A stretch of DNA of 64,000 bases, taken from an uncultured Cohaesibacter sp. Lineage in GTDB: Bacteria; Pseudomonadota; Alphaproteobacteria; Rhizobiales; Cohaesibacteraceae. A program made the position numbers and the translations under genes. Under the pieces are notes generated by a model that worked only from the letters and a program-made list of their open reading frames with translations, did not search any database and was not told the origin of the DNA. The stretch lies in NCBI GenBank assembly GCA_963676485.1, contig OY781115.1. One strand, 5' to 3'. This document shows positions 17,425 to 33,867 of the stretch, piece after piece (within the stretch, counting starts at the first letter, position 1; each line of letters starts with the position of its first letter).

Positions 17425-17437
17425 TTTGTCCTCAATT

Positions 17438-17545: not shown

Positions 17546-17770
17546 AATTATGAAACCCGGCCAGACTATCGTAAATCATTGGAAAATAGAGCCAAAGGCA
17601 TTCTTGTTGGCGTTGTTACAGAGATTGACAGGGGGCACCAAGAGGCCACTCTTCCCCTCAATCAAAGCGAGCTTCCTCGTGCCGTCACGAGAGCTCTGAG
17701 ACAGCGCCCTGTATCCACGCAAGATGGAATAATCGTGTGAAGACTAAATGCGATTGCGCCGCGCCCGCAG

Positions 17771-18742
17771 CTAGGCTTTGATCAAGGCCTGGGCGAGAGC
17801 TTGATCAACGCAAAGATGCGTTACATAGCCACCGCGAATGGCAGCCAGCACAGCATTCTTGCGCCTGATGCTCCCGGCGATAAGCAATTTTTTGGGTACG
17901 CGATGCAATGCGTCAAAATCTATCGCAATGAGCCGTTTATCGGGCGCCACGCGAACGGGCTCGCCTTCGGCATTGATATAGCGGCAACAGATCACTCCTA
18001 CCGCACCGGCATCCCTTGCCGCTTCCAGCTCTTCAGGTGTCGTCATGTGCGCCCGAATCATATGGGTCTGGTCTTGCACATGACCGATGGAAGCAACATA
18101 CATGTCCAGATTGTTGAGCTTTTCCAGTTGCTGCTTGATTGTTGGTTCATTCCGCAACAATTCTGCGATTTCGTCATTGGACCCGACAGCAGGCGCATGC
18201 AATGTCGAACATTGTGCTGACAGCATATTGGCTATCTGGATCGCACAGCGTTCGGAGGCCGGAACAGTGTCTGATCTCATGGAGCCGATCATCTGCCGCA
18301 CAATGACATCTCTCTTGTGGACCTTCGGCATTTGCTCGGATACCGTGAAAACGGTTTCGCCCCATGCAACCCCGAGTGTTTCTCCCGGCGCGATAATTTC
18401 AGCCAATGCAATGGCGCCAACGCGGCCCAACTGGCGCAGCATTTCATTTCTTGTAACTTTAGATCCGTCGACACCACTGGTTGAGATGTAAACATCTGTT
18501 AGGCCATATTTCTCGCCCAAGTCCTGAGACAGAGACGATCCTGCGAGATATTTACCATCAACCAGAATGTCGACCACACGATTTTCGCGCGCCTCACGCA
18601 GCATATTGACGACGGTGGCGCGTGAAACATTCATACGTTTCGCAATGTCGTTTTGGGTCAAACCCTCCCCATAATAGAGGAGGGCCACATTTGCGAGCGT
18701 TGATTCTTTGTTAAAATATCGTGAGGTTTGGTCTTTGTTCAT
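17771..18742 (-). CDS. SorC/DeoR-family sugar-binding transcriptional regulator
   Basis: LLYYGEGLTQNDIAKRMNVSRATV HTH, LGVAWGET, LHAPA. Confidence 0.92.
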   Translation of the reverse strand: MNKDQTSRYFNKESTLANVALLYYGEGLTQNDIAKRMNVSRATVVNMLREARENRVVDILVDGKYLAGSSLSQDLGEKYGLTDVYISTSGVDGSKVTRNEMLRQLGRVGAIALAEIIAPGETLGVAWGETVFTVSEQMPKVHKRDVIVRQMIGSMRSDTVPASERCAIQIANMLSAQCSTLHAPAVGSNDEIAELLRNEPTIKQQLEKLNNLDMYVASIGHVQDQTHMIRAHMTTPEELEAARDAGAVGVICCRYINAEGEPVRVAPDKRLIAIDFDALHRVPKKLLIAGSIRRKNAVLAAIRGGYVTHLCVDQALAQALIKA

Positions 18743-18745
18743 GAG

Positions 18746-19411
18746 CTAGCTATTAACAGACTTCTGCCCTGCTTGGCCATAGTTCTTTCTGAACCATTCA
18801 AAGCAACGAACAATTTCTTCTTGTGGTAATTCCTCAACCTCACCGCGCAACATCGCCAGATGCGTGGTCATGGCCGCTTCCTCGAGATACATGGCCACGG
18901 ACGTGGCTTCCGTCGCGGACTTGCCCATCGTGAAAACGCCATGGGCCTTGACCAGAGCCGCATAGCCGCCTTGGGCCGCCTCAAGAATGGCCTCGCCTGT
19001 ATCCACTTCACCCGCAGTTGCGTAGCGTGAGCAGGGCACATCGCGGCCAATCATGTGGGTAATGGGAGTGAGTACCGCAGGGATACGCTCTCCACGCGCA
19101 GCAAAGCTGGTCGCATAGGGCGAATGGGTGTGCGTAATGCCGCCGATATCATCCCTGTTGCGATAGAGATAAAGATGAATGCCAGCATCAACCGATGGTT
19201 TCATTTCACCCTCGATGACGTTACCGTCGATGTCGATGACCACCATCGTGTCGGGTGTCAATTTCGCAAACTTCACGCCCGATGGCTTGATAACAATAAG
19301 CCCTGTCTCTTTGTCGCGGCCGGATACATTGCCCCCCGACCCGACGACAAGATTGTTGCGCGGTAATTCGTGGTTCTGATCGCAGACTTCTTCTTTAAGT
19401 GCTTCAAGCAT
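18746..19411 (-). CDS. araD: Class II aldolase/epimerase, L-ribulose-5-phosphate 4-epimerase-like
   Basis: GNVSGRD, IKPSG, KPSVD (Asp as in AraD rather than the FucA Glu), HTHS, HG, C-terminal YGQ; start MLEALK at 19411. Confidence 0.75.
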   Translation of the reverse strand: MLEALKEEVCDQNHELPRNNLVVGSGGNVSGRDKETGLIVIKPSGVKFAKLTPDTMVVIDIDGNVIEGEMKPSVDAGIHLYLYRNRDDIGGITHTHSPYATSFAARGERIPAVLTPITHMIGRDVPCSRYATAGEVDTGEAILEAAQGGYAALVKAHGVFTMGKSATEATSVAMYLEEAAMTTHLAMLRGEVEELPQEEIVRCFEWFRKNYGQAGQKSVNS

Positions 19412-20468
19412 CACTGGCCTCCTTTGGAATGCCGTGCGGGTAAACGAGAATTTTGAGGGATTTTTCGGCGTCGACCAACATGCGGAAAGCCTCGGCAGAA
19501 TCCGCGATGTCAAACCGGTGGGAAATGGCTTCGTCAGCCATGATCCGCCCCGCTTCGAGCAATCGGATGTAACTGTAGGTGTCCGTATGGTCGGAGGAAT
19601 AGCGCGAGGTGATGGTCACCTGATTGAAATAGGCCTTGTTGCCATCCTGCACCCAATCGGTGTCCGGAGCGAGCGGTGCGCCCAAATGCAGGCATCCGCC
19701 TTCTTCCACCAGACTGCCCGCAAGCTCCCATGCCGGCGGGAAAGGCGCGATCACAATAACCGTATCTGCAAGGCGTCCATTGTTGAGGGCTCTAAGGGCT
19801 GCAACCGGATCACTCTCTGTTTTTGGGTTGATTGTGTGCGTTGCCCCAAAGCGTTTGGCTTGTTCAAGGCGCCAGTCAGAGAAGTCCAGCGCAATCACCT
19901 TGCCCGCACCAAATAGCGGGGCCATATGCACAAAGCCCTGTCCCATGAAGCCGGCTCCAACGACTGCCACTGTGTCGCCGGGCTGAATGTTGCACACTTT
20001 AAGGCCTGACATCACACAGGACCACGGCTCGATTGTCACCGCCGCCTCGGTCGAGATGCTGTCCGGCAGTTTGTGGGCATCCATCATTAGATGCTGAGCG
20101 GTAACGCGGTAATATTCGCAGACGCCGCCCGGATCGAGTTTGGTGGTTGAATAGAAAGGATCGCGCGTGAAATGGCCGCGCCGTGACCAATGGCTGTTCA
20201 CACGCCCCACATGGTGATTGATGAACAGACGATCCCCGATCGCGAAGTCTGTCACATTGGCTCCCACTTCCACCACTTCGCCAATTGGCTCATGTCCGAG
20301 CACCTTGGGCTTGGATTTCTTGTACCAGGACATAGCCTCGCCGCCACACAATCCGCAGACCAGTGTCTTGAGAAGAACCTCATCGGGTCCGATTTCCGGG
20401 ATTGGCCGCTCTTCAAGGCGAATGTCGTCAATCGCATAATAGACAGCGGCTTTCATCATGTTGCTCAT
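19404..20468 (-). CDS. Zn-dependent (MDR) polyol dehydrogenase, iditol-dehydrogenase-like
   Basis: CGLCGGE, GHEPIG, EPWSC, GAGFMG, ALD; start MSNMMK at 20468. Confidence 0.85.
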   Translation of the reverse strand: MSNMMKAAVYYAIDDIRLEERPIPEIGPDEVLLKTLVCGLCGGEAMSWYKKSKPKVLGHEPIGEVVEVGANVTDFAIGDRLFINHHVGRVNSHWSRRGHFTRDPFYSTTKLDPGGVCEYYRVTAQHLMMDAHKLPDSISTEAAVTIEPWSCVMSGLKVCNIQPGDTVAVVGAGFMGQGFVHMAPLFGAGKVIALDFSDWRLEQAKRFGATHTINPKTESDPVAALRALNNGRLADTVIVIAPFPPAWELAGSLVEEGGCLHLGAPLAPDTDWVQDGNKAYFNQVTITSRYSSDHTDTYSYIRLLEAGRIMADEAISHRFDIADSAEAFRMLVDAEKSLKILVYPHGIPKEASDA

Positions 20469-21979
20469 AGTTCGTCTTTCATCTGTTTTAGCTGCTTTGA
20501 CAGAAGTCGGGCATTTTCTGAGAGAAGCTTGTAGCGTTTGAAAATCTTGCAATAGGCTGCGTGTGCCTCGGCGTTCGGTTCATAGCGCTGGACTTTCTCT
20601 TCGCGCTTGACCAAAGACATGACGTCGCCCAGTCCTGCTGCAGCCGCTCCGATGCAGGCAGCCCCCCAGAGCCCCTGATCGGAGGCTTCAGAGACAATAA
20701 TAGGCACGCCAATCACATCGCTGATGATCTGGCACCAAACGGGGTTTTTCGACCCTCCGCCAGTCAGTTGAACAGGTTCGCTCGGCAGGCCCCCTTCCAT
20801 CTCAAAACAGTGACGCAGGCTCATTGCGCCTCCCTCCAAAACGGCTCGCCCCATGTCAGCTTTTGTGCTTCTTGAGGTTAAGCCTTGAAAGGAGGCGGTC
20901 ACGTTAGGAGAGACGAAAGGGGCACGCTCACCATTCAAATAGGGCAGGAACGTTACGCCATTTGCGCCTACGGGGACTTTGGTTACAAGTTCGTTGAGTT
21001 TGGCCGCCACTTCGCCGGGCGTATCGCCACCAAGGCTCAGTGGATGCAGCTCCGTAAACCAGTTAAACGCCGACGCTCCGGTTGTGGGCGCCAAAATTCT
21101 GATGATCACATCCGATGTGGCATGCAGCGCGCTGGCACCCACGGGCTGGTCGTGTGTTTCAATATGGTCTGTTAAAATGTTGACAACGGCGGTCGTACCC
21201 ATGATCATCATGGTCTGGCCGGGTTGGTCCATCCCCATCCCGACAATCATCGCAGTAAGATCCAATGTCGGCGTGGAAACCGGCAAACCTTCCGGCAGAC
21301 CTGTTAAGCGGGCGGTCTCGGCGGTCAAGGTACCCAACGGAGTTGTTGCCCGTTGCGGCTCAAGCAAATGCTGCTGGATGTCGGAGCAGTCAAGGGCGTC
21401 TGCAACGTCGGAACTGTAAGTGCGTGTAGAGAAATCAATGAACGGTATGGAAGCGTTCGAGAAATCGGTTCCTGCCTGACCGGTCAAGTTCAAACCGATC
21501 CAGTCGCCGCAGGTGAAAATCGTTGCGATTTTGCTGACGATTTCCGGTTTATTTTGCTTCAACCAGCGCCATAGCGCACCAGAAGTGCCAGGCCATAAGG
21601 ACGTGTGGCAGGCCCGACCAACAGCGGCGGCTTTTCCAGATGTCGCGAGTTGTTCGACATCTGCTGATGCGCGCGTGTCGTTCCAGAGCATGGCAGGACC
21701 CACGGGCTTGCCTGCCTCATCAACGGCCCAAAGCCCATCGCCCTGAGCGCTGATACCCAGCGAGACAGGAACAAAGTCATTGATTTTGCTCGCAATGGAT
21801 TTCAATGCGTCCAAAACCACGGAAAGGACCGCATTCATGTCCTGCTCAGATTTGCCTTCGCGTCCTGTTACATCCGGTGCAGATTTCTCCACCATTGCCA
21901 CTATCTGACCGGTCGAATCATACGCAGCGGCCTTGATCGAGGTTGTCCCAATATCAAGGCCAAGTCTCACAGCTGTCAT
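20465..21979 (-). CDS. FGGY-family carbohydrate kinase (erythritol kinase/L-xylulose kinase-like)
   Basis: GLDIGTTSIKA, SAQGDG, MLWNDTR, FLPYLNGER, LTGGGSKN; GGAGG RBS before MTAVRL at 21979. Confidence 0.88.
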   Translation of the reverse strand: MTAVRLGLDIGTTSIKAAAYDSTGQIVAMVEKSAPDVTGREGKSEQDMNAVLSVVLDALKSIASKINDFVPVSLGISAQGDGLWAVDEAGKPVGPAMLWNDTRASADVEQLATSGKAAAVGRACHTSLWPGTSGALWRWLKQNKPEIVSKIATIFTCGDWIGLNLTGQAGTDFSNASIPFIDFSTRTYSSDVADALDCSDIQQHLLEPQRATTPLGTLTAETARLTGLPEGLPVSTPTLDLTAMIVGMGMDQPGQTMMIMGTTAVVNILTDHIETHDQPVGASALHATSDVIIRILAPTTGASAFNWFTELHPLSLGGDTPGEVAAKLNELVTKVPVGANGVTFLPYLNGERAPFVSPNVTASFQGLTSRSTKADMGRAVLEGGAMSLRHCFEMEGGLPSEPVQLTGGGSKNPVWCQIISDVIGVPIIVSEASDQGLWGAACIGAAAAGLGDVMSLVKREEKVQRYEPNAEAHAAYCKIFKRYKLLSENARLLSKQLKQMKDEL

Positions 21980-22042
21980 ATAAGTACCTCCCGGACAGCA
22001 AATTATCGAGTTCTTAGATAATACAAATGACAAATAATCGAT

Positions 22043-22101
22043 CATATGTAAAGAAATAAGACAAAAAAATATTGACATGTGTAAAAAATTTTTACATGTG
22101 T
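22043..22101. promoter_or_regulatory. Divergent promoter with TGTAAAAA-A-TTTTTACA palindrome and TTGACA; candidate SorC operator
   Basis: 17-bp palindrome 22080-22096; ACATGTGT direct repeat at 22075 and 22094; CATATGTAAA at 22043; TTGACA at 22072. Confidence 0.6.
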
Positions 22102-22192
22102 ATAGAGCAATGTAGTTCACTTTTAAGGCAGGGTCTAGCATCTGGGAGGTTGGAGGATGCTGCCTGAATTAGAATCCGAAGGGGAGGATAGA

Positions 22193-23161
22193 ATGAAACT
22201 CAAGCTAATCACTTTGGTATCTGCGGCAGCGATGCTGTTTGCAGGTTCCGCAAATGCTGAAGATTTGAGTCTTGCAGGAAAGCGCATCGGCATTGCCGTT
22301 GTCGGCACACAGCATTTCTGGGATCGTGAAGCGTTCAATGGTGCCGTTTCCACCGTCGAGAAACTCGGTGGTGAAGCTGTCCCGGTCGATGGTGGCCGCG
22401 ACAACCAGGTGCATGCCGACAATCACGACATTTTGCTTACCAACAAAGTGGATGCTGTCATCTCCATTCTGGGTGATGCGGCTGTAGAACCCAAATTCAA
22501 GGCACTTACAGAAGCTGGTATTCCGGTCTTTACCGTTGATCACCCATCGCAATATTCCGTGAACAACACCACATCCGACAACTACTATATGGGAACAACC
22601 ATTGGACGCTTCATGGCCGATGCCATTGGTGGCAAGGGCAAGGTTGCTGTTTTCAATGCGTTCGAGAAATCTCTGCGCATTTGCGGCATCCGCGTAGGGC
22701 TGTGGAAGTATGTTCTTCAGGATTATCCGGAAATCGAAATCATTCAGCCAGAGCTTGCTGAAGCCTATGCAAATGCGCCTGAAGATGCGCGTAAGAAAAC
22801 CCTTGATTTGCTGAGCCAATATCCAGAAGGCACACTTGATGTCATCCATGTTGGCTGCTGGGACCAACCCGCCATTGGTGTGGTTCAGGCACTTGAAGAA
22901 ACCGGCCGGACCGATGTTCTGGTAACAGCGTTGGATGGTGGCCCGGATACTCTGGAAATCATGGCGGAAGACGGCAGCCCATTCGTTGCCAACGTTGCGC
23001 AGCAGCCAAACAAGATTGGTGCAACCGCTGCGAAAAATGTTGCTCGTTACTTTGCTGGCGAAACCCTGCTTCCTCAGACATATGTCGACGTTGTTCCTAT
23101 CAACGGACAGGACGGGGCCAAGAAAGCTTACGAAGAACTGGGCTACGGCACACTCGACTAA
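22193..23161 (+). CDS. CUT2 sugar ABC substrate-binding protein (RbsB-like fold)
   Basis: Signal peptide MKLKLITLVSAAAMLFAGSANA; two-lobed PBP1-type sequence. Alternative start 22157. Confidence 0.88.
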   Translation: MKLKLITLVSAAAMLFAGSANAEDLSLAGKRIGIAVVGTQHFWDREAFNGAVSTVEKLGGEAVPVDGGRDNQVHADNHDILLTNKVDAVISILGDAAVEPKFKALTEAGIPVFTVDHPSQYSVNNTTSDNYYMGTTIGRFMADAIGGKGKVAVFNAFEKSLRICGIRVGLWKYVLQDYPEIEIIQPELAEAYANAPEDARKKTLDLLSQYPEGTLDVIHVGCWDQPAIGVVQALEETGRTDVLVTALDGGPDTLEIMAEDGSPFVANVAQQPNKIGATAAKNVARYFAGETLLPQTYVDVVPINGQDGAKKAYEELGYGTLD

Positions 23162-23247
23162 GCGTCATTCCTTCTTGATATAAAATATCGGCGGCTGGTT
23201 GCTATCGGCTGCCGATGACCAGAATATCCATATGGGAGGATTAGGTC

Positions 23248-24774
23248 GTGTCTGATTTCGCTCTTGAGATGCGAAACATCACCAAAGAATTTCCCGGTGT
23301 TCGCGCGCTTGATCAAGCGAGCTTGTCCATCAAGCCCGGTGAAATTCACGGTCTCGTCGGAGAAAATGGCGCCGGCAAATCTACAATCATCAAGGTGCTT
23401 GCCGGTGTCTATAAGCCCGAAGCGGGACACGTGGATGTTTTTGGCAAAGCCCTGCCACAGGGGTTTGACCCAACAGCTGTCCATGATGCGGGGGTGCGGT
23501 TCATCCATCAGGAACTGCATTTGGTGCCATATTTTACAGTTGCCGAATCCGTGTTCATGGCGCAGGAGAAATCCGATTGGAAAGGGCTTAAGTCCTCAGA
23601 TATGCGCAAGAAGACCGAAGAGTTTCTTCGCGAGAAACTTGCGGTTTCAATATCCGGCAAGCGTCTGGTTCGGGATCTGAGCACTGCTGAGCGCAAGCTC
23701 GTCCAGATTGCCCGCGCACTCATTGATGATGAGGCCAAGATCGTGGTCTTTGATGAACCGACGGCACCACTCGCAAGTGGCGAAGTCGAGACATTGATGA
23801 ATGCGATCGCCCAGCTGAAAGAATCGGGTATATCGATTCTTTATGTCTCCCATTATCTCGATGAGATTACCGATATTTGCGATCGTGTGACTGTCTTTCG
23901 CCAAGGCAAGAATGTTGCTGTCTTTGACGAAATTTCCAAGTCGAGCGGTCAAGAGCTGGTCTCTGCCATGGTTGGCCGTGATTTGGGCTCGCTTTATCCG
24001 GAAAGCAACAGAATTCCGGGAAGTCCCGTGCTGGAATTGAAAGAATTCGGCGATGGTGACAACTTCCGAAACGTCAATCTGTGTGCACACCGGGGGCAGA
24101 TTCTGGGAATTGCAGGTCTGATCGGCTCTGGCCGTCAAGAACTGATCGATTGCATTTATGGCCTGAGAAGCGCCAATGAAGGCAAGATGTTCCTCAATGG
24201 CTCCCAGATTTCAATTCGCAACGCAGCGCAAGCTGTGAAAAATGGTGTTGTCTTGGTTCCAAGGGACAGAAGGCAGGACGGTCTGGTTTTGCCTATGACA
24301 GTCACCGAAAATGTGACATTGGCAACCTTGGACCAGGTTTCCTCTTTTGGTCTTGAAAACCGGACTTCGTCCAAGGCCTCTGCCCATAAGCAGATCAAGG
24401 ATCTGGACATCCGGACACCATCCGCTGAGACCGTGACGCGTTTGCTCAGCGGCGGCAACCAGCAGAAGGTCGTTCTGGGCCGTTGGTTGGCCAAGGACGC
24501 AAAAGTATTCATTCTCGATGAACCAACTGTCGGTGTCGATGTTGGGGCACGCGTCGAGATTTACCAATTGATCGAGCAATTGGCAGCCAATGGAACAACA
24601 GTCATTGTGTCGTCTTCCGATCCGGCAGAACTGATCGGTATCTGTGATCGGATCGCTGTCTTGATGCGTGGTGAAATAACCCACGAGGTTGAAACCGATA
24701 ATTTGACGGTTGATCGGCTGGTTGCAATTACGACAGGTGCAGAAAAGAGGGAGGATCTCGCAAATGCAAGCTAA
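23248..24774 (+). CDS. CUT2 sugar ABC ATPase (RbsA-like)
   Basis: GENGAGKS, DEPTA, LSGGNQQKV. Confidence 0.93.
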   Translation: MSDFALEMRNITKEFPGVRALDQASLSIKPGEIHGLVGENGAGKSTIIKVLAGVYKPEAGHVDVFGKALPQGFDPTAVHDAGVRFIHQELHLVPYFTVAESVFMAQEKSDWKGLKSSDMRKKTEEFLREKLAVSISGKRLVRDLSTAERKLVQIARALIDDEAKIVVFDEPTAPLASGEVETLMNAIAQLKESGISILYVSHYLDEITDICDRVTVFRQGKNVAVFDEISKSSGQELVSAMVGRDLGSLYPESNRIPGSPVLELKEFGDGDNFRNVNLCAHRGQILGIAGLIGSGRQELIDCIYGLRSANEGKMFLNGSQISIRNAAQAVKNGVVLVPRDRRQDGLVLPMTVTENVTLATLDQVSSFGLENRTSSKASAHKQIKDLDIRTPSAETVTRLLSGGNQQKVVLGRWLAKDAKVFILDEPTVGVDVGARVEIYQLIEQLAANGTTVIVSSSDPAELIGICDRIAVLMRGEITHEVETDNLTVDRLVAITTGAEKREDLANAS

Positions 24775-25741
24775 TGCGATCAGAGGAAATATCCTCGGCG
24801 AGGTCATCGGTGCAGCGCCCGTAATGATCTTTGCGGTGCTTCTGATTTACATCGGAATGAATGCGCCAAACTTCTTGACGCTGATCAACCTCAAGCTGAT
24901 TCTGATGCAGAGTCTGCCAATCGTGCTGGTTTGTGTCGGCCTTTCGGCCGTTGTCATGGCGGGCGGCGATGATGCGGTCTCTGGCGGTATTGATCTTTCC
25001 ATTCCTGCAACATGTGTTTTGTGTGCAGGGATCATAGCGAGCACGATTACGACTGGTACACCGCTTATTCTGGCGGCACTCTATGCATTGGTCGCAGCCC
25101 TGATCGTTGGATCAATCAATGCGTTTCTTGTCACCCGCGTTGGCATGACCCCTCTGTTGACATCGCTGTCCATGTTTGTGGCCGTTGTCGGGGTTAACAA
25201 GGTTGTCACCCAAAGTCGCCGCATTAACGTCAACAACGAAACCATCCTCTCCTTGCGCGATGGATCTCTCCTTGGCGTGCCACTGGGCATTTGGGTTGTC
25301 GGTCTGGTTGTTCTGGTTGGCTATCAGTTGATGCACCGAACCAAGTGGGGGCTCAACATGCAGGCGGTTGGTGGAAGTCGGGATGCGGCAGAAATTTCTG
25401 GCCTCAACACCAATCGCCTGTTTGCCCAGTCCTTCGTTATTGCAGCGGTCCTTGGGTTCATAACCAGCTTCTTTGTGATCGCCAGAGGCTCGGGCATTTC
25501 ACCCGGCGTGCAAGACAATCTGATGCTGGAAATGGTGCTTGCCACATTCCTGGGCGCCGCTTTCTCTCCGCGCAGGGTCGTGACGATGTGGGGCGCTGTT
25601 CTGGGGGCTGTTCTCGTCGCAGCCATTTCGATCGGCTTCAAGTCGATGGGCGTGAATGTCTTCTGGACCGGCCTCATCAAAGGGTCAATGATCGTTGTTG
25701 TCGTTGCAATGGGAGCCATTTCCCAGAGGGTACAACGATGA
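24764..25741 (+). CDS. CUT2 sugar ABC permease
   Basis: GGIDLS, AVGGSRDAAEISG; start MQANA at 24764. Confidence 0.9.
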   Translation: MQANAIRGNILGEVIGAAPVMIFAVLLIYIGMNAPNFLTLINLKLILMQSLPIVLVCVGLSAVVMAGGDDAVSGGIDLSIPATCVLCAGIIASTITTGTPLILAALYALVAALIVGSINAFLVTRVGMTPLLTSLSMFVAVVGVNKVVTQSRRINVNNETILSLRDGSLLGVPLGIWVVGLVVLVGYQLMHRTKWGLNMQAVGGSRDAAEISGLNTNRLFAQSFVIAAVLGFITSFFVIARGSGISPGVQDNLMLEMVLATFLGAAFSPRRVVTMWGAVLGAVLVAAISIGFKSMGVNVFWTGLIKGSMIVVVVAMGAISQRVQR

Positions 25742-26727
25742 GTATTTCTTCCATTCCAGGCAAGGGGAATAAAGTGAACTTTCCGAGTCTAAAAAGCACC
25801 TTTGTAAGATATGGCTTTGTTGTCGTCTTCGTGTGTTTCTTCCTGTTCTTTGCCGCATGGAACCCGGTGTTTGTGCAGGCACAGAACCTGACCAATATCT
25901 TTGAAGCATCATCGATCTTGTTGATCCTGGCGCTGGGGATGACTTTGGTTGTTGCAACCGGCGGCATTGATCTTTCGGTCGGGATTGCCCTCGACTTCGG
26001 AGCAGCATTCTCGGTGGTCGCCATGAAATCCTACGGGATGGACTGGTGGAGTGCTTCGATGATCGGCATTGCTGGCGGAAGCCTCGTGGGCATGTTGAAC
26101 GCCGCGCTTGTTGTTGGATTGAAGATCAGTCCATTTTTGGCAACTCTGAGCACATTCTTTATCGGCTCGTCCGTTCAGCGCATTTTCACCAATGGTGGCG
26201 GCCCCATCTCTTACCGAAGGATGCCGATTGAATATCGCAATCTGGCGCAAGGCGAGATCTATGGGATTCCGACGGAAATTGTCATTGCAGCCGTGGTGGC
26301 GATTATCTACTTCATCATTCTTGAACGGTCCATTTGGGGTCGACAGATCCATGCGATGGGCATGCAGAGATCAGCTTCCATCGTTGCCGGTCTACGCGTG
26401 AACAAGCTTCTGATCATTTGCTTTATCGCTGCGTCAGCCACATGCGCCATTGCGGGTTTGCTCGCTGCGTCCAATCTTAGAATGTTCACGCCACTGGCAG
26501 GCTTTGCCTATCTTCTCGATGCGATTGCTGCAGTCTTTATCGGAGCTGCCCTTCATCCACGCGGCAGGCCCAATATACCGGGCACTGTGGCTGGGGTGCT
26601 TTTCCTGGGAATGGTTGCCAATGGCCTGAATTTGATGGGGTTGAACTTCAACACCAAGGACGCCCTCTCTGGGATCATCCTTGTCTCGGCTCTTGCACTG
26701 GCCGTTGCACAAAGAAAGATGCGCTGA
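25738..26727 (+). CDS. CUT2 sugar ABC permease (second)
   Basis: GGIDLSVG, LLDAIAAVFIGA; ATGA overlap with the previous gene. Confidence 0.9.
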   Translation: MSISSIPGKGNKVNFPSLKSTFVRYGFVVVFVCFFLFFAAWNPVFVQAQNLTNIFEASSILLILALGMTLVVATGGIDLSVGIALDFGAAFSVVAMKSYGMDWWSASMIGIAGGSLVGMLNAALVVGLKISPFLATLSTFFIGSSVQRIFTNGGGPISYRRMPIEYRNLAQGEIYGIPTEIVIAAVVAIIYFIILERSIWGRQIHAMGMQRSASIVAGLRVNKLLIICFIAASATCAIAGLLAASNLRMFTPLAGFAYLLDAIAAVFIGAALHPRGRPNIPGTVAGVLFLGMVANGLNLMGLNFNTKDALSGIILVSALALAVAQRKMR

Positions 26728-26793
26728 CTATCAAGAGATGGGGCGGCCTCTTGCACCGCCTCGTTTGACCTACACCGCTTTTCTCCCAAAACT

Positions 26794-26825
26794 AAACCCC
26801 CGGACATTGTCCGAGGGTTTTTTTT
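26794..26825. terminator. Bidirectional intrinsic terminator
   Basis: AAACCC-C-CGGACA-T-TGTCCG-A-GGGTTT followed by a T-run, between convergent genes. Confidence 0.75.
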
Positions 26826-26861
26826 AAGGTTGATACCATTATCGCAATGGAGGATGCCGGT

Positions 26862-29126
26862 TCAGGCCGAGAGGATTGGCGGTTTGTCTATCGTTAAGGC
26901 AGGCAGCGCGCCCTGCCACTTCTCAACGCGCACCAATGCGGTATGAGCGATGTTCCCTTGGGAGAGACTGGAGCATCCCTTGTCCTTGGTCAGAACATTC
27001 GGATTGCCGTGCACCTCTATCGCACTGCCATTCACGATTTGAGGGTCGAACCAGGCCCCCGTGGCAAGCGACACACAATCGCGCCGGATATCATCGCAAT
27101 ATCTCAATCCCGCAAGGCAGGAGCCACGTTCATTGAATATCCGCACAATTGATCCGTTCTCCAAGCCTCTGGCTCTTGCTGTCTCGGAATGGATATAAGC
27201 TGGCTCTCTCCCCTCGATCTTGTCGGCAAGCGCTTCAGACCCTCTGTCATTTTGTGAGTGAAGGCGCGTGTCCGGCTGCCCTGATATCAAGTGAAGTTCG
27301 TCTTCTTCTGCACTCAACAGGCTCTCACATGGCTCCAGCCAAGACGGATGGGGTGGGCAATCTGGAAGCGCCATGGCTTCAATTGCTTCATTGAAAAGCG
27401 TGATTTTGCCGCTCTCTGTTTTGAGGGGGTGGGTTTCAGGGGCAGCGACAAACGCTTCAAGAGCGATACGCTGGGCCTTAGAGTTTGGCACATCAAACCG
27501 CCCCTTTTCGCGGAATACCTCAAAGGAGGGAAGCTCAAACCCTTCTGTTATCGCCACGCGCTGGCAATCTGTCCAGATTGTTTGTAGCCATCCGTCTTGA
27601 TCGCGCCCTTCTGTAAACTCTTCTGCGAATCCCAATTCCTTTGCCAGCAAGCTGAAAATCTCAAAGTCGCTCTTTGACTGCCCGAAAGGCTCAAAAAGCT
27701 GCGACATGAACAGTAATGTGCTGTCACGCCGGTTGATCATGATATCCTCGCGTTCCAAAGGGGTGGAGGCCGGAAAAACAATGTCGGCTCTTCTTGCCGT
27801 TGCGGTCCAGCTATGATCGTTGACAATAATCGTTTCCGGCTTGGCCCAGCCGGTTTCAAGCCTGTTCAGGTCCTGGTGATGATGGAACGGATTGCCGCCA
27901 GCCCACCAGACGAGCTTGATGTCGGGATAGGTTCTGTCCTGCCCGTTATATTTGTATGATCCTCCCGGATTGAGCAGCATATCCGCAATACGGGCCACCG
28001 GAATGTAATCAGAGACGGGATTGCGGCCTTGTGAAACGGATGGCCATGATATCAAGCGGGTAGGGCGGCCCACAGGCGTGGTTGATCCATAGCCAAAAGC
28101 AAAACCTGTTCCGGTTTTACCGATCTGGCCTAATGCACAGGCCAATGCGAGCCCCGCCCAAAGAGGTTGCTCGCCGTGATCACCGCGTTGAATCCCCCAT
28201 GACATGGCGATCATGCTCTTCTTGGACGCAAGTTGCGTGGCCAGCATTCTGATTTGTGTGGCGGGTAAATCACAAATGGACGCAGCCCATTCCGGTGTCT
28301 TGGCTTGCCCGTCTTTGCCATGCCCCAGAATATAGCTTTTGAACGCGTCCCAGCCGCTGGTGCAGCGCGCAAGGAAGTCTTCATCTGCCTTCCCTGTCTC
28401 AACAAGTACAAAGATCAAGGCGAGCAGCAAGGCTGTGTCCGTACCCGGTCGGATCGAAAGCCATTCAGATCCTGCAAGATCGCTTTTCTTTGGCGAGACA
28501 TTCACCAATTGGACATGCCGGTCTTGCAATGTCTTGAGCCAACCGGGAATTTCATGTTTGGACGTGCCTGCCGAGGCAATCTGGGCCGTTCGGCCTGAAA
28601 TGCCGCCAAAAACGAGCAACAGCTCGCAATGTTCTGCGACCAATGGCAACGAGGTCATTTCATCCTGAAAGGCACGGTTGCTCAGGCCCAGTATGTGCGG
28701 AAACAGAACTTCAGCGGCTGCGTGGGAATAGGTTTCCCGGGCGCCCACAAACCCTCCAGCCATATTCAGGAACCGCCGCAATTGGCTCTGGGCATGGTGA
28801 AAACGCCCGGCACTGGACCATCCGTAGGACCCGCCGAAAATCGCGCCATTGCCATAGTCTTCCTTGATACGCCGCACTTCTCGCGCTGCGAGTGAGACGG
28901 CTTGGTCCCAGCTGACTTCGATATATTTGTCGTTGCAGCGATTTTTGCCGCCGTCACCCTCCAGCCAACCCGCGCGTATGGCGGGTTGGCGGATGCGGCT
29001 ATTCTGATCGCGTGCAGCACTCTGCCAACCTTTCCCGATACGGGAAGGGGATGGGTCATCTGCAATAGGCCGCAAGCTCTTGTCGTCAATTTCGTAGGCG
29101 CCCCAATGGGCTGCGGTATATTTCAT
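26862..29126 (-). CDS. bisC: Cytoplasmic Mo-bisPGD S/N-oxide reductase (BisC/TorZ/DMSO reductase clade)
   Basis: AAHWG start, GSYGW (DMSOR Tyr/Trp), TYS Mo-ligand Ser, GNPFHH, RLHSQ, HGNPNVLT; no Tat signal and no Fe-S motif. Confidence 0.85.
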   Translation of the reverse strand: MKYTAAHWGAYEIDDKSLRPIADDPSPSRIGKGWQSAARDQNSRIRQPAIRAGWLEGDGGKNRCNDKYIEVSWDQAVSLAAREVRRIKEDYGNGAIFGGSYGWSSAGRFHHAQSQLRRFLNMAGGFVGARETYSHAAAEVLFPHILGLSNRAFQDEMTSLPLVAEHCELLLVFGGISGRTAQIASAGTSKHEIPGWLKTLQDRHVQLVNVSPKKSDLAGSEWLSIRPGTDTALLLALIFVLVETGKADEDFLARCTSGWDAFKSYILGHGKDGQAKTPEWAASICDLPATQIRMLATQLASKKSMIAMSWGIQRGDHGEQPLWAGLALACALGQIGKTGTGFAFGYGSTTPVGRPTRLISWPSVSQGRNPVSDYIPVARIADMLLNPGGSYKYNGQDRTYPDIKLVWWAGGNPFHHHQDLNRLETGWAKPETIIVNDHSWTATARRADIVFPASTPLEREDIMINRRDSTLLFMSQLFEPFGQSKSDFEIFSLLAKELGFAEEFTEGRDQDGWLQTIWTDCQRVAITEGFELPSFEVFREKGRFDVPNSKAQRIALEAFVAAPETHPLKTESGKITLFNEAIEAMALPDCPPHPSWLEPCESLLSAEEDELHLISGQPDTRLHSQNDRGSEALADKIEGREPAYIHSETARARGLENGSIVRIFNERGSCLAGLRYCDDIRRDCVSLATGAWFDPQIVNGSAIEVHGNPNVLTKDKGCSSLSQGNIAHTALVRVEKWQGALPALTIDKPPILSA

Positions 29127-29129
29127 AGA

Positions 29130-30203
29130 TCACAAATGCGGATCAAGGATCACCTTGATTTGCACTTCCCCTGGGTTTGGTTTACGCGAAAGGGCGGTTT
29201 CAAATTCCTCGAGCGGATAGCGATGGGTGATGCAGGCGTCACCATCAATCAGGCCACGCGCCATCAGATCCAGAGCCGTGGCATAGGTGAAGGGGGCGAG
29301 ATGACCGCCAAGAATATTCAGCTCCTTGAACTCGCCGAATATGTTGAGATCAACATTTACCTTGTCCTTATAGACCCCAAAGACAACAAGCGTGCCGCGC
29401 TTGCGGATCAGTTCCAGCCCTCTGGTGAAGGCGGATGTCTGCCCTGATGCTTCCAGATAAACATCGGCCCCGCGTCCCCCTGTCAGATCCCCAATCGCCT
29501 GATCCAGCTTCGGATCATCGGGATGGAAAGCAAGATCGGCTCCGAGTGTTTTCGCCAGTTCGCGTTTGGCTTCCCCGGGATTGACCAGAATGAGCTTTCG
29601 AGGGGTTTTCAGGCGGGCTGCTTGCAGCATTCCCATGCCGATCGGCCCTGCACCGGATACGACCACCACATCCTGAAACTGGATGTTGGCCCGCTCCACG
29701 CCGTGGATTGCATTGGCCAGTGGCTCGGTAAAGCAAGCTGCGTCATTGGACAGACCATCGGGCACCTTGTGGACCACGCAATCGGCTGGATAGATCATGT
29801 AATCCGCCCAGGCGCCATTGAGCGTCGCGCCAAGCACATCCATCTTGTCGCTCAGATGATAGAGCCCGCGTTGACGGAAATAATCATTCCCATAGGTGAT
29901 GTTGAGCTCTGCGACGGCACGATCGCCGACTTTGACGGCGTGGCGCTCTCCGGCCCCCTCTCCAAGTTCGACCACTGTACCGGTGAATTCGTGGCCCGGT
30001 ATGAACGGGAATGGGAACTCCCAAGGGGCTGTGGCGTCATACATGGCGCGATCCGCAGCACATATGCCTGACGCATCGACTTTCACCAAAATCTCGCCCG
30101 GGCCGGGTTCGGGTACCGGTTGCTTTGTAGTCAGGCGATGCTGTCCACCAAATCCGTGACACTGCACAGCACGCATCATCTTCCCTGTCATTTGTTCCTC
30201 CAA
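29130..30203 (-). CDS. Zn-dependent polyol dehydrogenase, EltD (erythritol/L-threitol dehydrogenase)-like
   Basis: GICAAD, PGHEF, EPLA, GAGPIG, GADVYLE and KELNILGGHLAP resemble the EltD family. Confidence 0.82.
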   Translation of the reverse strand: MEEQMTGKMMRAVQCHGFGGQHRLTTKQPVPEPGPGEILVKVDASGICAADRAMYDATAPWEFPFPFIPGHEFTGTVVELGEGAGERHAVKVGDRAVAELNITYGNDYFRQRGLYHLSDKMDVLGATLNGAWADYMIYPADCVVHKVPDGLSNDAACFTEPLANAIHGVERANIQFQDVVVVSGAGPIGMGMLQAARLKTPRKLILVNPGEAKRELAKTLGADLAFHPDDPKLDQAIGDLTGGRGADVYLEASGQTSAFTRGLELIRKRGTLVVFGVYKDKVNVDLNIFGEFKELNILGGHLAPFTYATALDLMARGLIDGDACITHRYPLEEFETALSRKPNPGEVQIKVILDPHL

Positions 30204-30250
30204 AGGCTATTTCTGATCGATTTTTCGCTCGCACAAAAAATCCTTCTTGA

Positions 30251-30288
30251 TTTTTACATATGAATATAATATTGACAATTGTAAAATG
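30251..30288. promoter_or_regulatory. Second divergent promoter with TTTTTACATATG...TGTAAAA; same motif as 22043-22101
   Basis: TTTACATATG at 30253 is the exact reverse complement of CATATGTAAA at 22043; TTGACA at 30272. Confidence 0.55.
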
Positions 30289-30301
30289 AGAGGAGATTGC
30301 T

Positions 30302-31228
30302 ATGCGCAATGAAAAAACGACAGAAGAGGTTGCTCTCGGTATTCGTCGTCGGGTGTTTGAGCACACGATGCGAAACAACGGGGGGTATCTGTCTCAGGCT
30401 TGTTCGGCAGCCGAGCAATTGGCTTGGTTGTATAACGAGCAGCTCAATCTGGGGGCACCAACGCTTCCAGCCATCCCGAAACCCTTTGCCGGCGTACCGT
30501 CTGCTGACAATCCCGATTATCACACGGGTGCGGGCTATAATGGACCGGCGTCACCGGAGTTTGATCGTCTCTTTATTGCGCCAGCCCATTACGCGCTGGT
30601 TGCCTATGCCACGCTGATTGAGGTGGGGCGTATGGATGAAGAAGGCCTCAAGATGTTCAACAAGGATGGCTCCTCCGTCGAGATGATCGGAGCGGAGCAT
30701 TCTCCGGGCATGGAAGTGCATAACGGCACGCTAGGGGTTGGTTTCTCCACCGCTGCCGGTCTTGCCTATGGCCGTCGCCTGAAGGGCGAAACCGGCAAGA
30801 CATGGGTCTTCATGTCCGATGGCGAAGTGGAAGAAGGCCAGACCTGGGAAGCGGTGCAGGCCGCGCGTTTTCATCGCATCGACAATCTGTGCGCCATCAT
30901 GGATGTGAATGAACAGCAATGCGATGGAGCCATGTCATCGGTGATGGAAGTGGGCGATATCCGCCAAAAACTCATCGATTTCGGTGCAGCATGCGTTGAA
31001 GTGGATGGTCATGATCTCGACGCCATCCGTCAGGCTTCCGAGGAACCCCATGAAGGACGTCCCCTGATCATCATGGCCCGGACCTCTCCGTTCAAAGCCA
31101 TGAATATTCTGGAAGAGCGGTTCCCACGTCTCCACTATGTGCGCTTCAAATCCGAAGAAGAGCGCGCCCGTTTCAACGTCTCGATTGCGGCAGACCTTGG
31201 TGTCGAGCCCGTCGATTACAGCCATTAA
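30302..31228 (+). CDS. Split transketolase, N-terminal (ThDP pyrophosphate-binding) subunit, atypical
   Basis: SDGEVEEGQTWEA...DVN ThDP motif, GTLGVG, VDGHD; GGYLSQACS where GH is usual. Confidence 0.88.
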   Translation: MRNEKTTEEVALGIRRRVFEHTMRNNGGYLSQACSAAEQLAWLYNEQLNLGAPTLPAIPKPFAGVPSADNPDYHTGAGYNGPASPEFDRLFIAPAHYALVAYATLIEVGRMDEEGLKMFNKDGSSVEMIGAEHSPGMEVHNGTLGVGFSTAAGLAYGRRLKGETGKTWVFMSDGEVEEGQTWEAVQAARFHRIDNLCAIMDVNEQQCDGAMSSVMEVGDIRQKLIDFGAACVEVDGHDLDAIRQASEEPHEGRPLIIMARTSPFKAMNILEERFPRLHYVRFKSEEERARFNVSIAADLGVEPVDYSH

Positions 31229-31240
31229 GGAGGCCTCATC

Positions 31241-32245
31241 ATGGTTGAAATGGTTAGTCGCCCCTATGCCCGCTCTTTCGAGAAATTCGCAGCCGGCAAT
31301 CCCGATATTCTGTGTCTGTCCGCCGATCTGACCTCATCCTGCGAGGTTGACGGCTTCCGGGATCGGCATCCGGATCAGTTTTTGAGCCTTGGCATGGCCG
31401 AGCAGAATATGCTCAGCTTTGCCGGTGGATTGGGCCTTGCTGGGTTCCGTCCCTTCATTCACACCTTTGGCGTCTTCATGTATCGCCGTCCCTATGACCA
31501 GTTGATGGCCTCCATTGCTTACCCCCGCAGAAAAGTACGGCTGATGGGCTTCTTGCCCGGGGTTACCACCCCCGGTGGGATGACCCATCAGTCGATTGAG
31601 GATATCTCGGTCATGCGCTCGATCCCCAATATGACCATATTGGAAACAGGCGACGCAACAGAGGTTGAATCCATTTGCGAGGCCGCCGACAGCATCGATG
31701 GACCGGTCTGGTGCCGGGTGCTGCGTGGCTCTGTGCCGCGTTTGTTCGATACCCCCATCAAGGTGGGTGAAATGCGTGTTCTGTCCGAAGGCGATGATAT
31801 TCTGGTTGTCACGGCAGGCATCACCACCGAAGAAGCCATGCGGGCGCGCTCTGCGCTCAAGGAGGCCGGGCTTTCCATCCGCCATCTGCATCTGCATACC
31901 ATCAAGCCGTTCGATGCCAAGGCATTGCTCGACCATATCGGTTCGGTCAAGCATGGGGTGATCACGCTGGAGAACCATGTCACCGAAGGCGGCATTGGCT
32001 CACTGGTTGCCGAGACCATGGCGGATGCCGGTGTTGGCAAGCGCCTTATTCGTCTGGGCCTCAAGGACACCTATGCCCATGGCGGATCACGGCCCTATCT
32101 GATGCGCTATTATGGTCTTGATGCCCTGGCACTCGTCAAGGGTATGGAAGATCTGATGGGGCAACAGTTCGGCATCACCGAAGATGACCTTGATACAGCC
32201 CGCGTCGAAGACGTTCACTCCCTCGTCAAGGCGGAGGCACTCTAA
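31241..32245 (+). CDS. Split transketolase, C-terminal (pyrimidine-binding) subunit, atypical
   Basis: SADL, GMAEQNM, THQ, IKPFD, ENH...GGIGS. Confidence 0.88.
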   Translation: MVEMVSRPYARSFEKFAAGNPDILCLSADLTSSCEVDGFRDRHPDQFLSLGMAEQNMLSFAGGLGLAGFRPFIHTFGVFMYRRPYDQLMASIAYPRRKVRLMGFLPGVTTPGGMTHQSIEDISVMRSIPNMTILETGDATEVESICEAADSIDGPVWCRVLRGSVPRLFDTPIKVGEMRVLSEGDDILVVTAGITTEEAMRARSALKEAGLSIRHLHLHTIKPFDAKALLDHIGSVKHGVITLENHVTEGGIGSLVAETMADAGVGKRLIRLGLKDTYAHGGSRPYLMRYYGLDALALVKGMEDLMGQQFGITEDDLDTARVEDVHSLVKAEAL

Positions 32246-33858: not shown

Positions 33859-33867
33859 GTTCAGACC

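Follow-up and report, generated by a model that had tools for sequence, protein, structure and literature searches.

Cytoplasmic molybdoenzymes of the BisC type are held to be stand-alone repair enzymes that have no operon partners and whose electron donor is unknown (PMC7759655). Among them, E. coli BisC, a biotin and free Met-S-sulfoxide reductase, is encoded by a monocistronic gene, and RsBisC of R. sphaeroides belongs to 'group 3' of the Dor/Tor-type enzymes (PMC8166771). DorA of R. sphaeroides and R. capsulatus (1EU1) and MtsZ of H. influenzae (7L5I) are periplasmic, Tat-exported and respiratory. On the carbohydrate side, the closest described systems are the MTA-isoprenoid and DHAP shunts (MtnP/MtnK, MtnA, the RuBisCO-like protein RLP and a cupin methylsulfurylase; Ald2), of which a molybdenum S-oxide reductase is not known to be part, and the L-arabinose and pentitol routes (AraB-AraD; polyol dehydrogenase, pentulokinase, 4-epimerase).

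Here we analysed a stretch of 64,000 nucleotides from an uncultured Cohaesibacter sp. (contig OY781115.1; "the window"), in which the gene of a BisC-like reductase closely follows that of a polyol-type dehydrogenase, ZnADH2 (Table 1). The predicted reductase resembles RsBisC in being an alphaproteobacterial, cytoplasmic, single-subunit bis-MGD enzyme without Fe-S motif or Tat signal, and both have the Ser ligand and Tyr/Trp pair; unlike the stand-alone, repair-type RsBisC, it falls in a distinct clade of strong support that has H135, Q154 and S186, and is predicted to be operonic with sugar enzymes. It shares domains, cytoplasmic location and the Tyr/Trp/Ser triad with E. coli BisC, whose D146, Y166 and W197 are nevertheless T132, F153/Q154 and S185 in the window enzyme, and whose gene, unlike the predictedly operonic one of the window reductase, has no operon partner. 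The fold and Mo ligation are those of DorA and MtsZ, but the hydrophobic pocket of these enzymes (Y165, W196, Y360, with D145) is missing. The surrounding genes share with the MTA shunts a transketolase family that occurs with MtnK, MtnA and RLP and, as we propose, the intermediate 1-methylthio-D-xylulose 5-phosphate, although here the feeding enzymes are a polyol dehydrogenase, an FGGY kinase and an AraD-like epimerase. The same families in the same logical order make up the L-arabinose and pentitol routes; in contrast to these, the window cluster reaches no equivalog cut-off and adds a dedicated atypical transketolase and the Mo enzyme.

Table 1. Features of the reductase locus (positions in the window; strand as read).
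Feature	Position	Strand	Remarks
SorC-family regulator	17771-18742	(-)	
AraD-like class II epimerase/aldolase	18746-19411	(-)	
ZnADH1	19404-20468	(-)	NAD-type Asp at end of beta-2
FGGY kinase	20465-21979	(-)	
Core operon FGGY / ZnADH1 / AraD-like / SorC	17771..21979	(-)	
Divergent promoter region 2, between FGGY and ABC operons	21980..22156	both directions	
Operator TGACATGTGTAAA	22073-22085		same motif; within FGGY/ABC divergent region
CUT2 sugar/polyol ABC importer	22193..26727	(+)	
SBP of CUT2 importer	22193-23161	(+)	
ATPase of CUT2 importer	23248-24774	(+)	
Permeases of CUT2 importer	24764-25741 and 25738-26727	(+)	
Reductase ORF; predicted cytoplasmic bis-MGD molybdoenzyme, Dor/Tor/BisC S-/N-oxide reductase superfamily, 'YSH' clade	26862..29126	(-)	754 aa
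Spacer TCT, ZnADH2 stop / reductase start	29127..29129	(-)	without clear SD
ZnADH2 ORF	29130..30203	(-)	program ORF list
ZnADH2, MDR-family polyol-type dehydrogenase/reductase	29130..30191	(-)	353 aa; ATG 30191
Divergent promoter region, ZnADH2-reductase / transketolase genes	30204..30301	both directions	
Operator TGACAATTGTAAA	30273-30285		overlaps promoter-like site 30278..30250
TktN, split transketolase	30302-31228	(+)	
TktC, split transketolase	31241-32245	(+)	

Exploring the junction, we read the minus strand as ...CATTTG TGA TCT ATG AAA..., in which the ZnADH2 stop codon (TGA, 29132-29130) and the reductase ATG (29126) are separated by 3 nt, as the initial annotation had stated. Its remark that there is no room for a promoter between the two genes agrees with a consensus scan of the junction, which found neither a promoter-like nor a terminator-like site. 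The scan placed one promoter-like site upstream of ZnADH2 (30278..30250, minus strand) and a second minus-strand site within the reductase gene (29028..29001), its 3 total matches being at chance level (2.5 expected). Because the 3-nt spacer offers no clear Shine-Dalgarno (SD) sequence, translation of the reductase is likely coupled to that of ZnADH2. A search of sequencing runs found no RNA run; those that contain the locus are contig sets covering genes and intergenic regions alike, and thus look like DNA. Lying on the same strand with a minimal spacer and a clean junction, and kept adjacent across taxa, the ZnADH2 and reductase genes make up a conserved pair, predicted to be an operon. ATG 30191 is the more likely start of ZnADH2 than TTG 30203, because GGAGG lies 5 nt upstream of the former, the latter falls inside this SD and a 92%-identical relative has a gene of 353 aa.

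ZnADH2 carries PF08240 (ADH_N) and PF00107 (ADH_zinc_N), keeps the motifs GIC, PGHE, TEPL and GAGPIG (a GxGxxG motif) together with the catalytic zinc ligands (Cys, His-Glu, Glu), and has 2D8A, 4EJ6 and 1PL6 as its nearest solved relatives; these are the features of MDR polyol dehydrogenases of the sorbitol or threonine dehydrogenase type. A profile search reached no NCBIfam equivalog for it. All 10 ZnADH2 orthologues carry Asn instead of Asp at the end of Rossmann strand beta-2, suggesting that the probable cofactor is NADP(H).

Profile searches of the reductase detected PF00384 (7.5e-49) and PF01568 (7.8e-21) only, and no Molybdop_Fe4S4 domain (PF04879), whereas a neighbouring DmsA homologue does carry one. 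The best solved relatives over the full length are 1EU1 (2.3e-168, residues 5-747) and 7L5I (5e-161). The alignment with mature R. sphaeroides DMSO reductase opens at residue 5 of the window enzyme and residue 11 of the other, indicating that there is no Tat leader; Y101 and W103 of the GGSYGW motif align to Y114 and W116 of the same enzyme and S134 to its Mo ligand S147, and all three are invariant in 168 relatives. The initial annotation was therefore right to describe a reductase that lacks a Tat peptide and an Fe-S motif and keeps the SYGW pair and the Ser ligand. With this domain architecture, ligand and pair, the protein falls in type III of the superfamily, and like the BisC family it has neither a Tat leader nor an N-terminal Fe-S motif. 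The W-to-S spacing of 31 residues equals that of W90/S121 in RsBisC, and taxonomy and this W/S spacing suggest that the window reductase may belong to 'group 3' of the Dor/Tor enzymes. All the canonical pocket positions of RsDorA are replaced: D145 by T132, Y165 by F153/Q154, W196 by S185 and Y360 by S348 or a deletion. The same losses occur throughout the alphaproteobacterial BisC-like family; Y165 and W196 are named as oxide-binding pocket positions in PMC8166771. In the tree, the reductase clade had an SH-aLRT of 100 and a stem of 0.52, and the residues peculiar to it (H135, Q154, S/A186) are at or adjoin the Ser ligand and the Y165/W196 positions. The score against TIGR00509 (BisC family) was 815.4 bits, below the cut-off of 1017.55. 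Given this score and the remodelled pocket, the predicted enzyme is not a true BisC, and the earlier label "BisC-like" holds at family level only. An exact look-up gave no match for the window protein or the L010 protein, and a metagenome scan gave few close relatives among the matches listed.

The two genes are part of a regulon of ~14.5 kb (17771-32245) composed of four operons with one operator, TTTAC-N4-GTCA, common to all, which is presumably bound by the cluster's own SorC-family repressor. Nearly all cluster loci carry this operator in the two divergent regions, TktN/reductase and FGGY/ABC; elsewhere we found 6 chance matches in 2.06 Mb of other loci, and none beside stand-alone copies of the reductase. 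The nearest liganded homologue of the substrate-binding protein (SBP), 4WT7, binds allitol. In the class II protein the AraD-type Asp is present (PSVD); its identity is 43% to AraD versus 30% to FucA, and at the position of AraD Asp120 it has His. A methylthioribulose-1-P aldolase of the DrdA/Ald2 type was also considered for this protein, since 6BTD scores as well as AraD, but the 43% identity to AraD and a metal site with the AraD Asp in place of the aldolase Glu make this less likely. Besides the reductase, the cluster enzymes are all of generic carbohydrate families and fall short of equivalog cut-offs. By gene content, this appears to be an undescribed sugar-alcohol gene cluster of which the reductase is a conserved, co-regulated member.

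The pairing is not unique to this strain, so that the refuting case named in the initial annotation does not apply. A tight ZnADH2-reductase junction was found in 11 loci from Rhodobacterales and Hyphomicrobiales, ranging from a 4-nt overlap (L177) through spacers of 3-12 nt (L002, L003, L006, L008, L081, L085, L165 and L167) to a gap of 36 nt (L174-176); two transketolase-first samples also yielded such pairs. Together with the shared operator of the regulon, this bears out the initial proposal that the two enzymes act in one pathway. In a scan of species-representative genomes, reductase orthologues of at least 62% identity were all inside the same cluster. Conservation extends beyond the pair to the split transketolase, the FGGY kinase, ZnADH1, the AraD-like epimerase and the SorC regulator, and in more than 20 loci of the two orders a sugar-type SorC operator precedes an operon whose first or second gene is the reductase; cluster position and operator are conserved across both orders and also on plasmids. 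Bacteria that carry the cluster are marine and associated with algae. Roughly half of the cluster loci (type B) keep the reductase but lack both ZnADH2 and the sugar ABC importer, and usually add a cytoplasmic CxPxR sulfatase and an SsuA/TauA-like (taurine/sulfonate-type) ABC importer, in front of which L083 carries the operator. The sulfatase and the sulfonate-type importers have no obvious fit in a thioether-sugar reading of the cluster. In L088 and L092, ZnADH2 is located behind transketolase, in the transketolase operon, and not beside the reductase; ZnADH2 co-varies with the ABC importer and not with the reductase. Across these loci, the link of the reductase with the whole regulon is more conserved than its link with ZnADH2.

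Stand-alone reductase orthologues are interspersed within the clade, indicating that the enzyme can work outside the cluster. They include one in Cohaesibacter celericrescens (L082, 69% identical), one in Roseibaca (L168), very close in the tree to the clustered L006, and three that adjoin nitrate-assimilation regulators (L009, L011, L013). L010, of LsrF/aldolase-like context, was rejected as a link from the clade to methanethiol oxidase, its SBP56-family protein scoring 152 bits versus an MtoX cut-off of 650.

TktC is 89% identical to P0198 of C. celericrescens, the neighbours of which are MtnK (MTRK, 464 bits versus a cut-off of 275), MtnA (425 versus 279), RLP, ABC and RbsD genes. This cluster holds no Mo S-/N-oxide reductase; in C. 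celericrescens the reductase and the transketolase cluster are on separate contigs. Such a reductase-free MtnK/MtnA/RLP cluster, like the stand-alone orthologues, speaks against a pathway-specific role. MtnK, MtnA and RLP are all absent from the window. Since this transketolase is part of methylthioribose salvage elsewhere, the compound handled by the cluster is probably an oxidised sugar or polyol that bears sulfur. Our literature search returned nothing relevant on a methylthioribose-sulfoxide reductase, a methylthioxylulose transketolase or methylthioribitol, nor did it turn up any methylsulfinyl sugar or polyol reported among marine metabolites.

In the pathway that we propose, the regulon would catabolise a sulfur-bearing pentose or polyol, or salvage sulfur from it, and converge on the atypical split transketolase, which, presumably working downstream of MtnK, MtnA and RLP elsewhere, would act on a 1-methylthio-pentulose 5-phosphate. 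ZnADH1 would oxidise a polyol of the 5-methylthio-D-ribitol type with NAD+, next to the thioether carbon, to 1-methylthio-L-ribulose; the FGGY kinase would phosphorylate C5 and the AraD-like 4-epimerase would yield 1-methylthio-D-xylulose 5-phosphate, the transketolase substrate. On paper, the stereochemistry of this scheme closes. The molybdoenzyme would be the sulfoxide reductase of the pathway, converting a methylsulfinyl substrate or intermediate to the thioether with NAD(P)H-derived electrons. An optional front-end module would consist of ZnADH2, of the NADPH type, and the polyol-type ABC importer; a cytoplasmic sulfatase and a taurine/sulfonate-type importer may replace it in other species.

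We tentatively prefer the reading in which the reductase acts on the methylthio-type sugar or polyol of the pathway itself, in its sulfoxide form. It might instead be a general cytoplasmic S-/N-oxide reductase (of free MetSO, BSO, DMSO or TMAO), like the biotin sulfoxide reductase of R. sphaeroides, that does not act on a sugar or polyol and is in the regulon because both serve sulfur or methionine salvage. The mixing of stand-alone with clustered orthologues in the tree, the separate contigs in C. celericrescens, the further sulfur-scavenging genes of type-B loci (sulfatase, SsuA-like importer) and the action of RsBisC on BSO, MetSO, DMSO and TMAO (PMC8166771) all suit such an enzyme. It would, however, be odd to find a housekeeping repair enzyme downstream of a sugar-type SorC operator in over 20 loci from two orders, and the polar replacements in the oxide-binding pocket are peculiar to the clade; we consider this explanation unlikely but give it some weight. 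That the cluster degrades an ordinary polyol of the allitol or ribitol type and carries the reductase as a fortuitous passenger without a role there would agree with the allitol-binding SBP homologue and with remaining enzymes that are all of generic carbohydrate families below equivalog cut-offs. Yet position and operator are kept across two orders and on plasmids, and a dedicated transketolase would be superfluous for an ordinary polyol; the one present is 89% identical to that of a methylthioribose cluster. We find a passenger hard to credit.

The initial annotation had also suggested a redox couple in which ZnADH2, oxidising a polyol, passes NAD(P)H to the reductase and so drives S-/N-oxide reduction. 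The BSO reductase of R. sphaeroides reportedly takes NADPH directly (Pollock and Barber). In favour of the couple, the tight junction is conserved and the NAD-specific Asp is missing in 10 of 10 ZnADH2 orthologues; for E. coli BisC, the physiological electron donor is not known (PMC7759655). But ZnADH2 is lacking from about half of the clusters that have the reductase, is in the transketolase operon in L088 and L092, and tracks the ABC importer; close reductase orthologues also stand alone, the NADPH pool diffuses freely and NADPH-type MDR enzymes are more often reductases in vivo. With the Asn at beta-2 as the sole point for ZnADH2 supplying NAD(P)H as its specific function, this part of the annotation found no support, and we regard a dedicated couple as improbable. 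Equally improbable, in our view, is a substrate other than a sulfoxide, whether an N-oxide, a selenoxide or the arsine oxide of an arsenosugar (5-deoxy-5-dimethylarsinoyl-ribose) derivative, or a reaction on the polyol that transfers no oxo group. Arsenosugars resemble methylthioribose as structural analogues and exist in sulfate and sulfonate forms, which would suit the type-B sulfatase and sulfonate-type importer; the carriers are alga-associated, and the pocket residues D145, Y165, W196 and Y360 are all changed. Against this, the cluster has no conserved glycosidase and no conserved arsenic genes (an ArsR-ArsP pair is 6 kb off in one species only), and S-/N-oxide reduction is the only activity known for type III Mo enzymes. 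It is very improbable that the whole regulon is an arsenosugar breakdown route for oxidised 5-deoxy-5-X-pentoses, X being methylsulfinyl and also dimethylarsinoyl. The sulfatase and sulfonate-type importer would then serve the uptake of arsenosugars in their sulfate and sulfonate forms, reduction of the arsine oxide would fall to the Mo enzyme, and the transketolase would release a C2 arsenical, a precursor of dimethylarsinoyl-acetate or -ethanol; such a route, if true, would for the first time give genetic access to how arsenobetaine precursors arise.

Returning to the pathway-specific sulfoxide reductase that we prefer, one reductase clade appears as a fixed, co-regulated part of a carbohydrate-type regulon in many marine Rhodobacterales and Hyphomicrobiales. 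The regulon is also found on plasmids of culturable strains, and its transketolase ties it to methylthioribose metabolism, so strains, operator sites and binding proteins are now at hand for finding the substrate. Culturable carriers include Marinovum algicola DG 898 (pMaD5, MALG_04568-04578), Paracoccus seriniphilus DSM 14827 (p420573), Sagittula marina DSM 102235, Roseicitreum antarcticum and Hoeflea prorocentri. If a sugar or polyol sulfoxide is indeed reduced, it would be a new substrate class for Mo S-oxide reductases and a new entry route into methylthio-pentulose metabolism, and would point to a previously unrecognised marine pool of oxidised organosulfur compounds.

On the minus strand, the dehydrogenase ZnADH2 runs into the molybdoenzyme gene (the reductase) through CATTTG-TGA-TCT-ATG, in which the stop (29132-29130) and the reductase ATG (29126) are separated by 3 nt. 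A consensus scan of the window, whose number of promoter and terminator matches was at chance level, found this junction and its vicinity free of promoter-like and terminator-like sites, the only minus-strand promoter-like sites being at 30278..30250, upstream of ZnADH2, and 29028..29001, within the reductase gene. Sequence and scan thus confirmed the same-strand, promoterless 3-nt junction of the initial annotation; public runs containing the locus behave as DNA. ZnADH2 most likely starts at ATG 30191 rather than at TTG 30203: GGAGG lies 5 nt upstream of the ATG, the TTG falls within that Shine-Dalgarno sequence, and the counterpart in a 92%-identical relative (L081) was called as 353 aa.

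A synteny survey showed that the pair, rather than being unique to one strain, recurs as a tight unit in other loci (Martelella, L002; Sagittula marina, L003; Roseinatronobacter ekhonensis, L006; Aquamicrobium terrae, L167; a common marine Rhodobacteraceae, L174-176; also L008, L081, L085 and L165), and with a 4-nt overlap in Roseicitreum antarcticum (L177); the pairs of L174-176 and L177 were retrieved with the transketolase, not the reductase, as starting point. In L088 and L092 ZnADH2 is placed instead after TktC, one half of the split transketolase TktN/TktC. Nine further species carry type-B clusters without ZnADH2 and without the CUT2 ABC importer, the FGGY kinase then coming directly after the reductase (Roseobacter cerasinus, L001; Roseitalea, L004; Cognatishimia, L012; Marinovum algicola pMaD5, L083/L180; Hoeflea prorocentri, L166; a Paracoccus seriniphilus plasmid, L179; also L005, L014 and L035). 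ZnADH2 co-varies with the ABC importer. Presence and absence across these loci and type A, which has both, therefore leave the divergent split transketolase, the FGGY kinase, the second dehydrogenase ZnADH1, the AraD-like protein and the SorC-family regulator as constant partners of the reductase. At least 18 clusters of the best 120 for the reductase and of the best 120 for TktC agree in the size of the longest contig, several below 35 kb, which serves as a rough indicator of linkage. In L174-L176, from a widespread marine Rhodobacteraceae species, the stretch from the reductase to the ABC genes contains additional genes, namely an alpha/beta hydrolase, a NUDIX protein and, in one variant, an AraC-type regulator, and an ArsR-ArsP pair lies ~6 kb beyond TktC (positions 2895-5454 and 16938-18312 for these features).

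Features and their coordinates (window, unless a locus is named)
Feature	Location	Strand	Remark
ZnADH2 ORF	29130..30203	-	ORF call
Reductase ORF	26862..29126	-	ORF call; P0001, 754 aa
AraD-like class II protein	18746-19411	-	AraD-type metal-site Asp; 43% identical to AraD
ZnADH1	19404-20468	-	
TktN	30302-31228	+	
TktC	31241-32245	+	
DmsABC-type operon	32387-36273	-	directly downstream of TktC
Region at stand-alone reductase, L009	12397-14150		adjoins NasT/NasS-like genes
Region at stand-alone reductase, L011	1776-3499		adjoins NasT/NasS-like genes
Region at stand-alone reductase, L013	1819-3575		adjoins NasT/NasS-like genes
Region at basal clade member, L010	9051-12283		directly behind LsrF-type thiolase
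BisC-like paralogues, L087	392-2746; 4734-7034		one metagenome contig
Sulfatase/importer, L083	16603-18135		type B
Sulfatase/importer, L179	8253-9797		type B
Sulfatase/importer, L001	17598-19205		type B
Sulfatase/importer, L012	6242-7819		type B
Sulfatase/importer, L014	14858-16573		type B
Sulfatase/importer, L035	15703-17328		type B

In the window, AATATTGACA-NNN-GTAAAA is present in each of the two divergent promoter regions, at 22073 and 30273. The core TTTAC-N4-GTCA was found between TktN and the reductase (or ZnADH2) in 11 loci and within the FGGY/ABC region in 7 type-A loci; it also lies between reductase and FGGY kinase in L004 and L166, which have a long gap there, and upstream of the SsuA-like importer of Marinovum (L083). 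Elsewhere the core is rare, with only 6 occurrences in the 2.06 Mb of the other loci and none beside the stand-alone copies of the reductase. This distribution speaks for joint control of the reductase and the sugar enzymes, with the SorC regulator presumably acting on the shared putative operator.

The domains detected in the reductase are PF00384 and PF01568, an Fe-S domain being absent, and the protein aligns with mature R. sphaeroides DMSO reductase from its residue 5 onward (residue 11 of the latter), indicating that it has no Tat leader; both absences had been annotated. The SYGW pair and Ser ligand also held, GGSYGW giving Y101/W103 (DorA Y114/W116) and ETYSH the Mo ligand S134 (DorA S147). 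Among solved structures it is closest to DorA (1EU1, 2e-168) and to H. influenzae MtsZ (7L5I). The S-/N-oxide pocket of MtsZ comprises Y154, W156, Y205, W236 and Y400, corresponding to DorA Y114, W116, Y165, W196 and Y360, and Asp185 (DorA D145) is likewise conserved (PMC8166771). Unlike E. coli BisC, which keeps the D, Y and W, the reductase retains only the Tyr/Trp pair (D145 to T132, Y165 to F153/Q154, W196 to S185, Y360 loop altered), and these losses are common to all 168 collected alphaproteobacterial-type relatives. By sequence, the reductase and these relatives make up a branch of their own within the superfamily, which probably corresponds to the 'third group' that PMC8166771 describes around R. 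sphaeroides BisC. The label 'BisC-like' stands insofar as the protein is predicted to work like Dor/Tor/BisC S-/N-oxide reductases, as a remote member; assignment to BisC itself is unwarranted, because its top NCBIfam model, TIGR00509 (bisC_fam), scored 815 bits, below the cut-off of 1017, and the pocket is not conserved. Within the branch 28 of the sampled sequences, this protein among them, form a clade (SH-aLRT 100, stem 0.52) marked by H135 directly after the Ser ligand (28/28), S/A186 (Gly in 138/140 sequences outside), Q154 and F344; lying at or beside pocket positions, these residues are predicted to make the pocket more polar. The two BisC-like paralogues of L087 are ~2 kb apart.

None of the cluster's sugar enzymes reaches an equivalog cut-off, and the transketolase is the decisive lead to what the regulon handles. 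TktC, 85-94% identical across all cluster loci, has 89% identity with the Cohaesibacter celericrescens protein P0198, whose gene shares an operon with a RuBisCO-like protein (RLP); adjoining that operon are methylthioribose kinase (MtnK; 464 bits, cut-off 275), MtnA (425 bits, cut-off 279), an ABC importer, RbsD, a SorC-type regulator and a FucA-like aldolase. The MtnK/MtnA/RLP association was seen in this one species; the window contains none of the three, and its class II protein and the P0198-cluster aldolase have only 30% identity. This protein retains the C-terminal Tyr of AraD and is a divergent epimerase or aldolase, since Asp120 is replaced by His and it scored 243 bits against the PRK06557 epimerase model (cut-off 251). 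The substrate-binding protein is nearest to 3L49 and 4WT7, the latter with bound allitol, and by analogy suggests an acyclic, ribo-configured polyol. The two MDR dehydrogenases differ in the residue that discriminates between cofactors: ZnADH1 has an NAD-type Asp (ALDFSD) and ZnADH2 (29130-30191) an Asn (LVNPG; 10/10 orthologues), which suggests one NAD-linked and one NADP(H)-linked step. We infer a three-step scheme in which a 5-methylthio-D-ribitol-type polyol would be oxidised beside the sulfur-bearing carbon to 1-methylthio-L-ribulose, phosphorylated at position 5 by the FGGY kinase, and converted by an L-ribulose-5-P 4-epimerase-type enzyme to 1-methylthio-D-xylulose 5-phosphate, a plausible substrate of the shared transketolase because it is the product of the RLP route. 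ZnADH2 may catalyse a second, NADPH-linked front-end step, e.g. aldose or ketose reduction, and the role proposed for the Mo enzyme is to reduce the imported compound, or an intermediate, from its sulfoxide form.

Some orthologues stand alone and are scattered through the clade, for example those of C. celericrescens (L082, beside a ferritin-like gene), of Roseibaca (L168/L086, very close to the clustered L006) and of L009, L011 and L013; the reductase could therefore be a generic methionine sulfoxide, biotin sulfoxide or DMSO reductase recruited into a sulfur-salvage regulon, to which we give perhaps one chance in four. The neighbours in the last three loci are an ANTAR response regulator and an NMT1-type sensor, nitrate-assimilation genes, and this setting could point to an N-oxide or nitrogen-related role in that sub-branch. 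The thiolase of L010, a 3-hydroxy-5-phosphonooxypentane-2,4-dione thiolase (483 bits, cut-off 297), is accompanied by a bifunctional aldolase/SDR, a FucA-like aldolase, an SBP56-family protein and a SorC/LsrR-like regulator. That ZnADH2 and the reductase form a redox couple, as initially proposed, is improbable, the NADP-type motif and the tight junction being all that favours it; reduction of a different oxide, e.g. the arsine oxide in an arsenosugar, or a different chemistry is equally improbable. A mere passenger gene is slightly less probable still, given the conserved operator and position.

In type B the front end is replaced by a cytoplasmic sulfatase and a taurine/sulfonate-type importer, which keep the organosulfur theme and are not explained by the thioether model. 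The sulfatase is signal-less, has an intact CMPAR (formylglycine) motif, adjoins an SsuA/TauA-like ABC importer, and matches no equivalog and arylsulfatase/choline-sulfatase models only weakly. The DmsABC-type operon of the window encodes a membrane-bound S-oxide reductase whose DmsA N-terminus (MMMANLTDFLKSKLDG...) has no twin-arginine pair; its adjacency to TktC recurs in L081 and is absent in the other cluster loci.

BisC has been described as lacking operon partners, its donor unknown (PMC7759655), and in the literature searched we found no Mo S-oxide reductase within a carbohydrate-type, SorC-controlled regulon tied to methylthio-pentulose metabolism. Two culturable strains, Marinovum algicola DG 898 (pMaD5, CP010860.1; L180) and Paracoccus seriniphilus (p420573, NZ_CP067132.1; L179), carry the complete type-B cluster on a plasmid, a location that fits its patchy distribution over two orders. 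The association of the reductase with the regulon is real and conserved, and it can be tested in culturable strains, for which these two are ready experimental systems.
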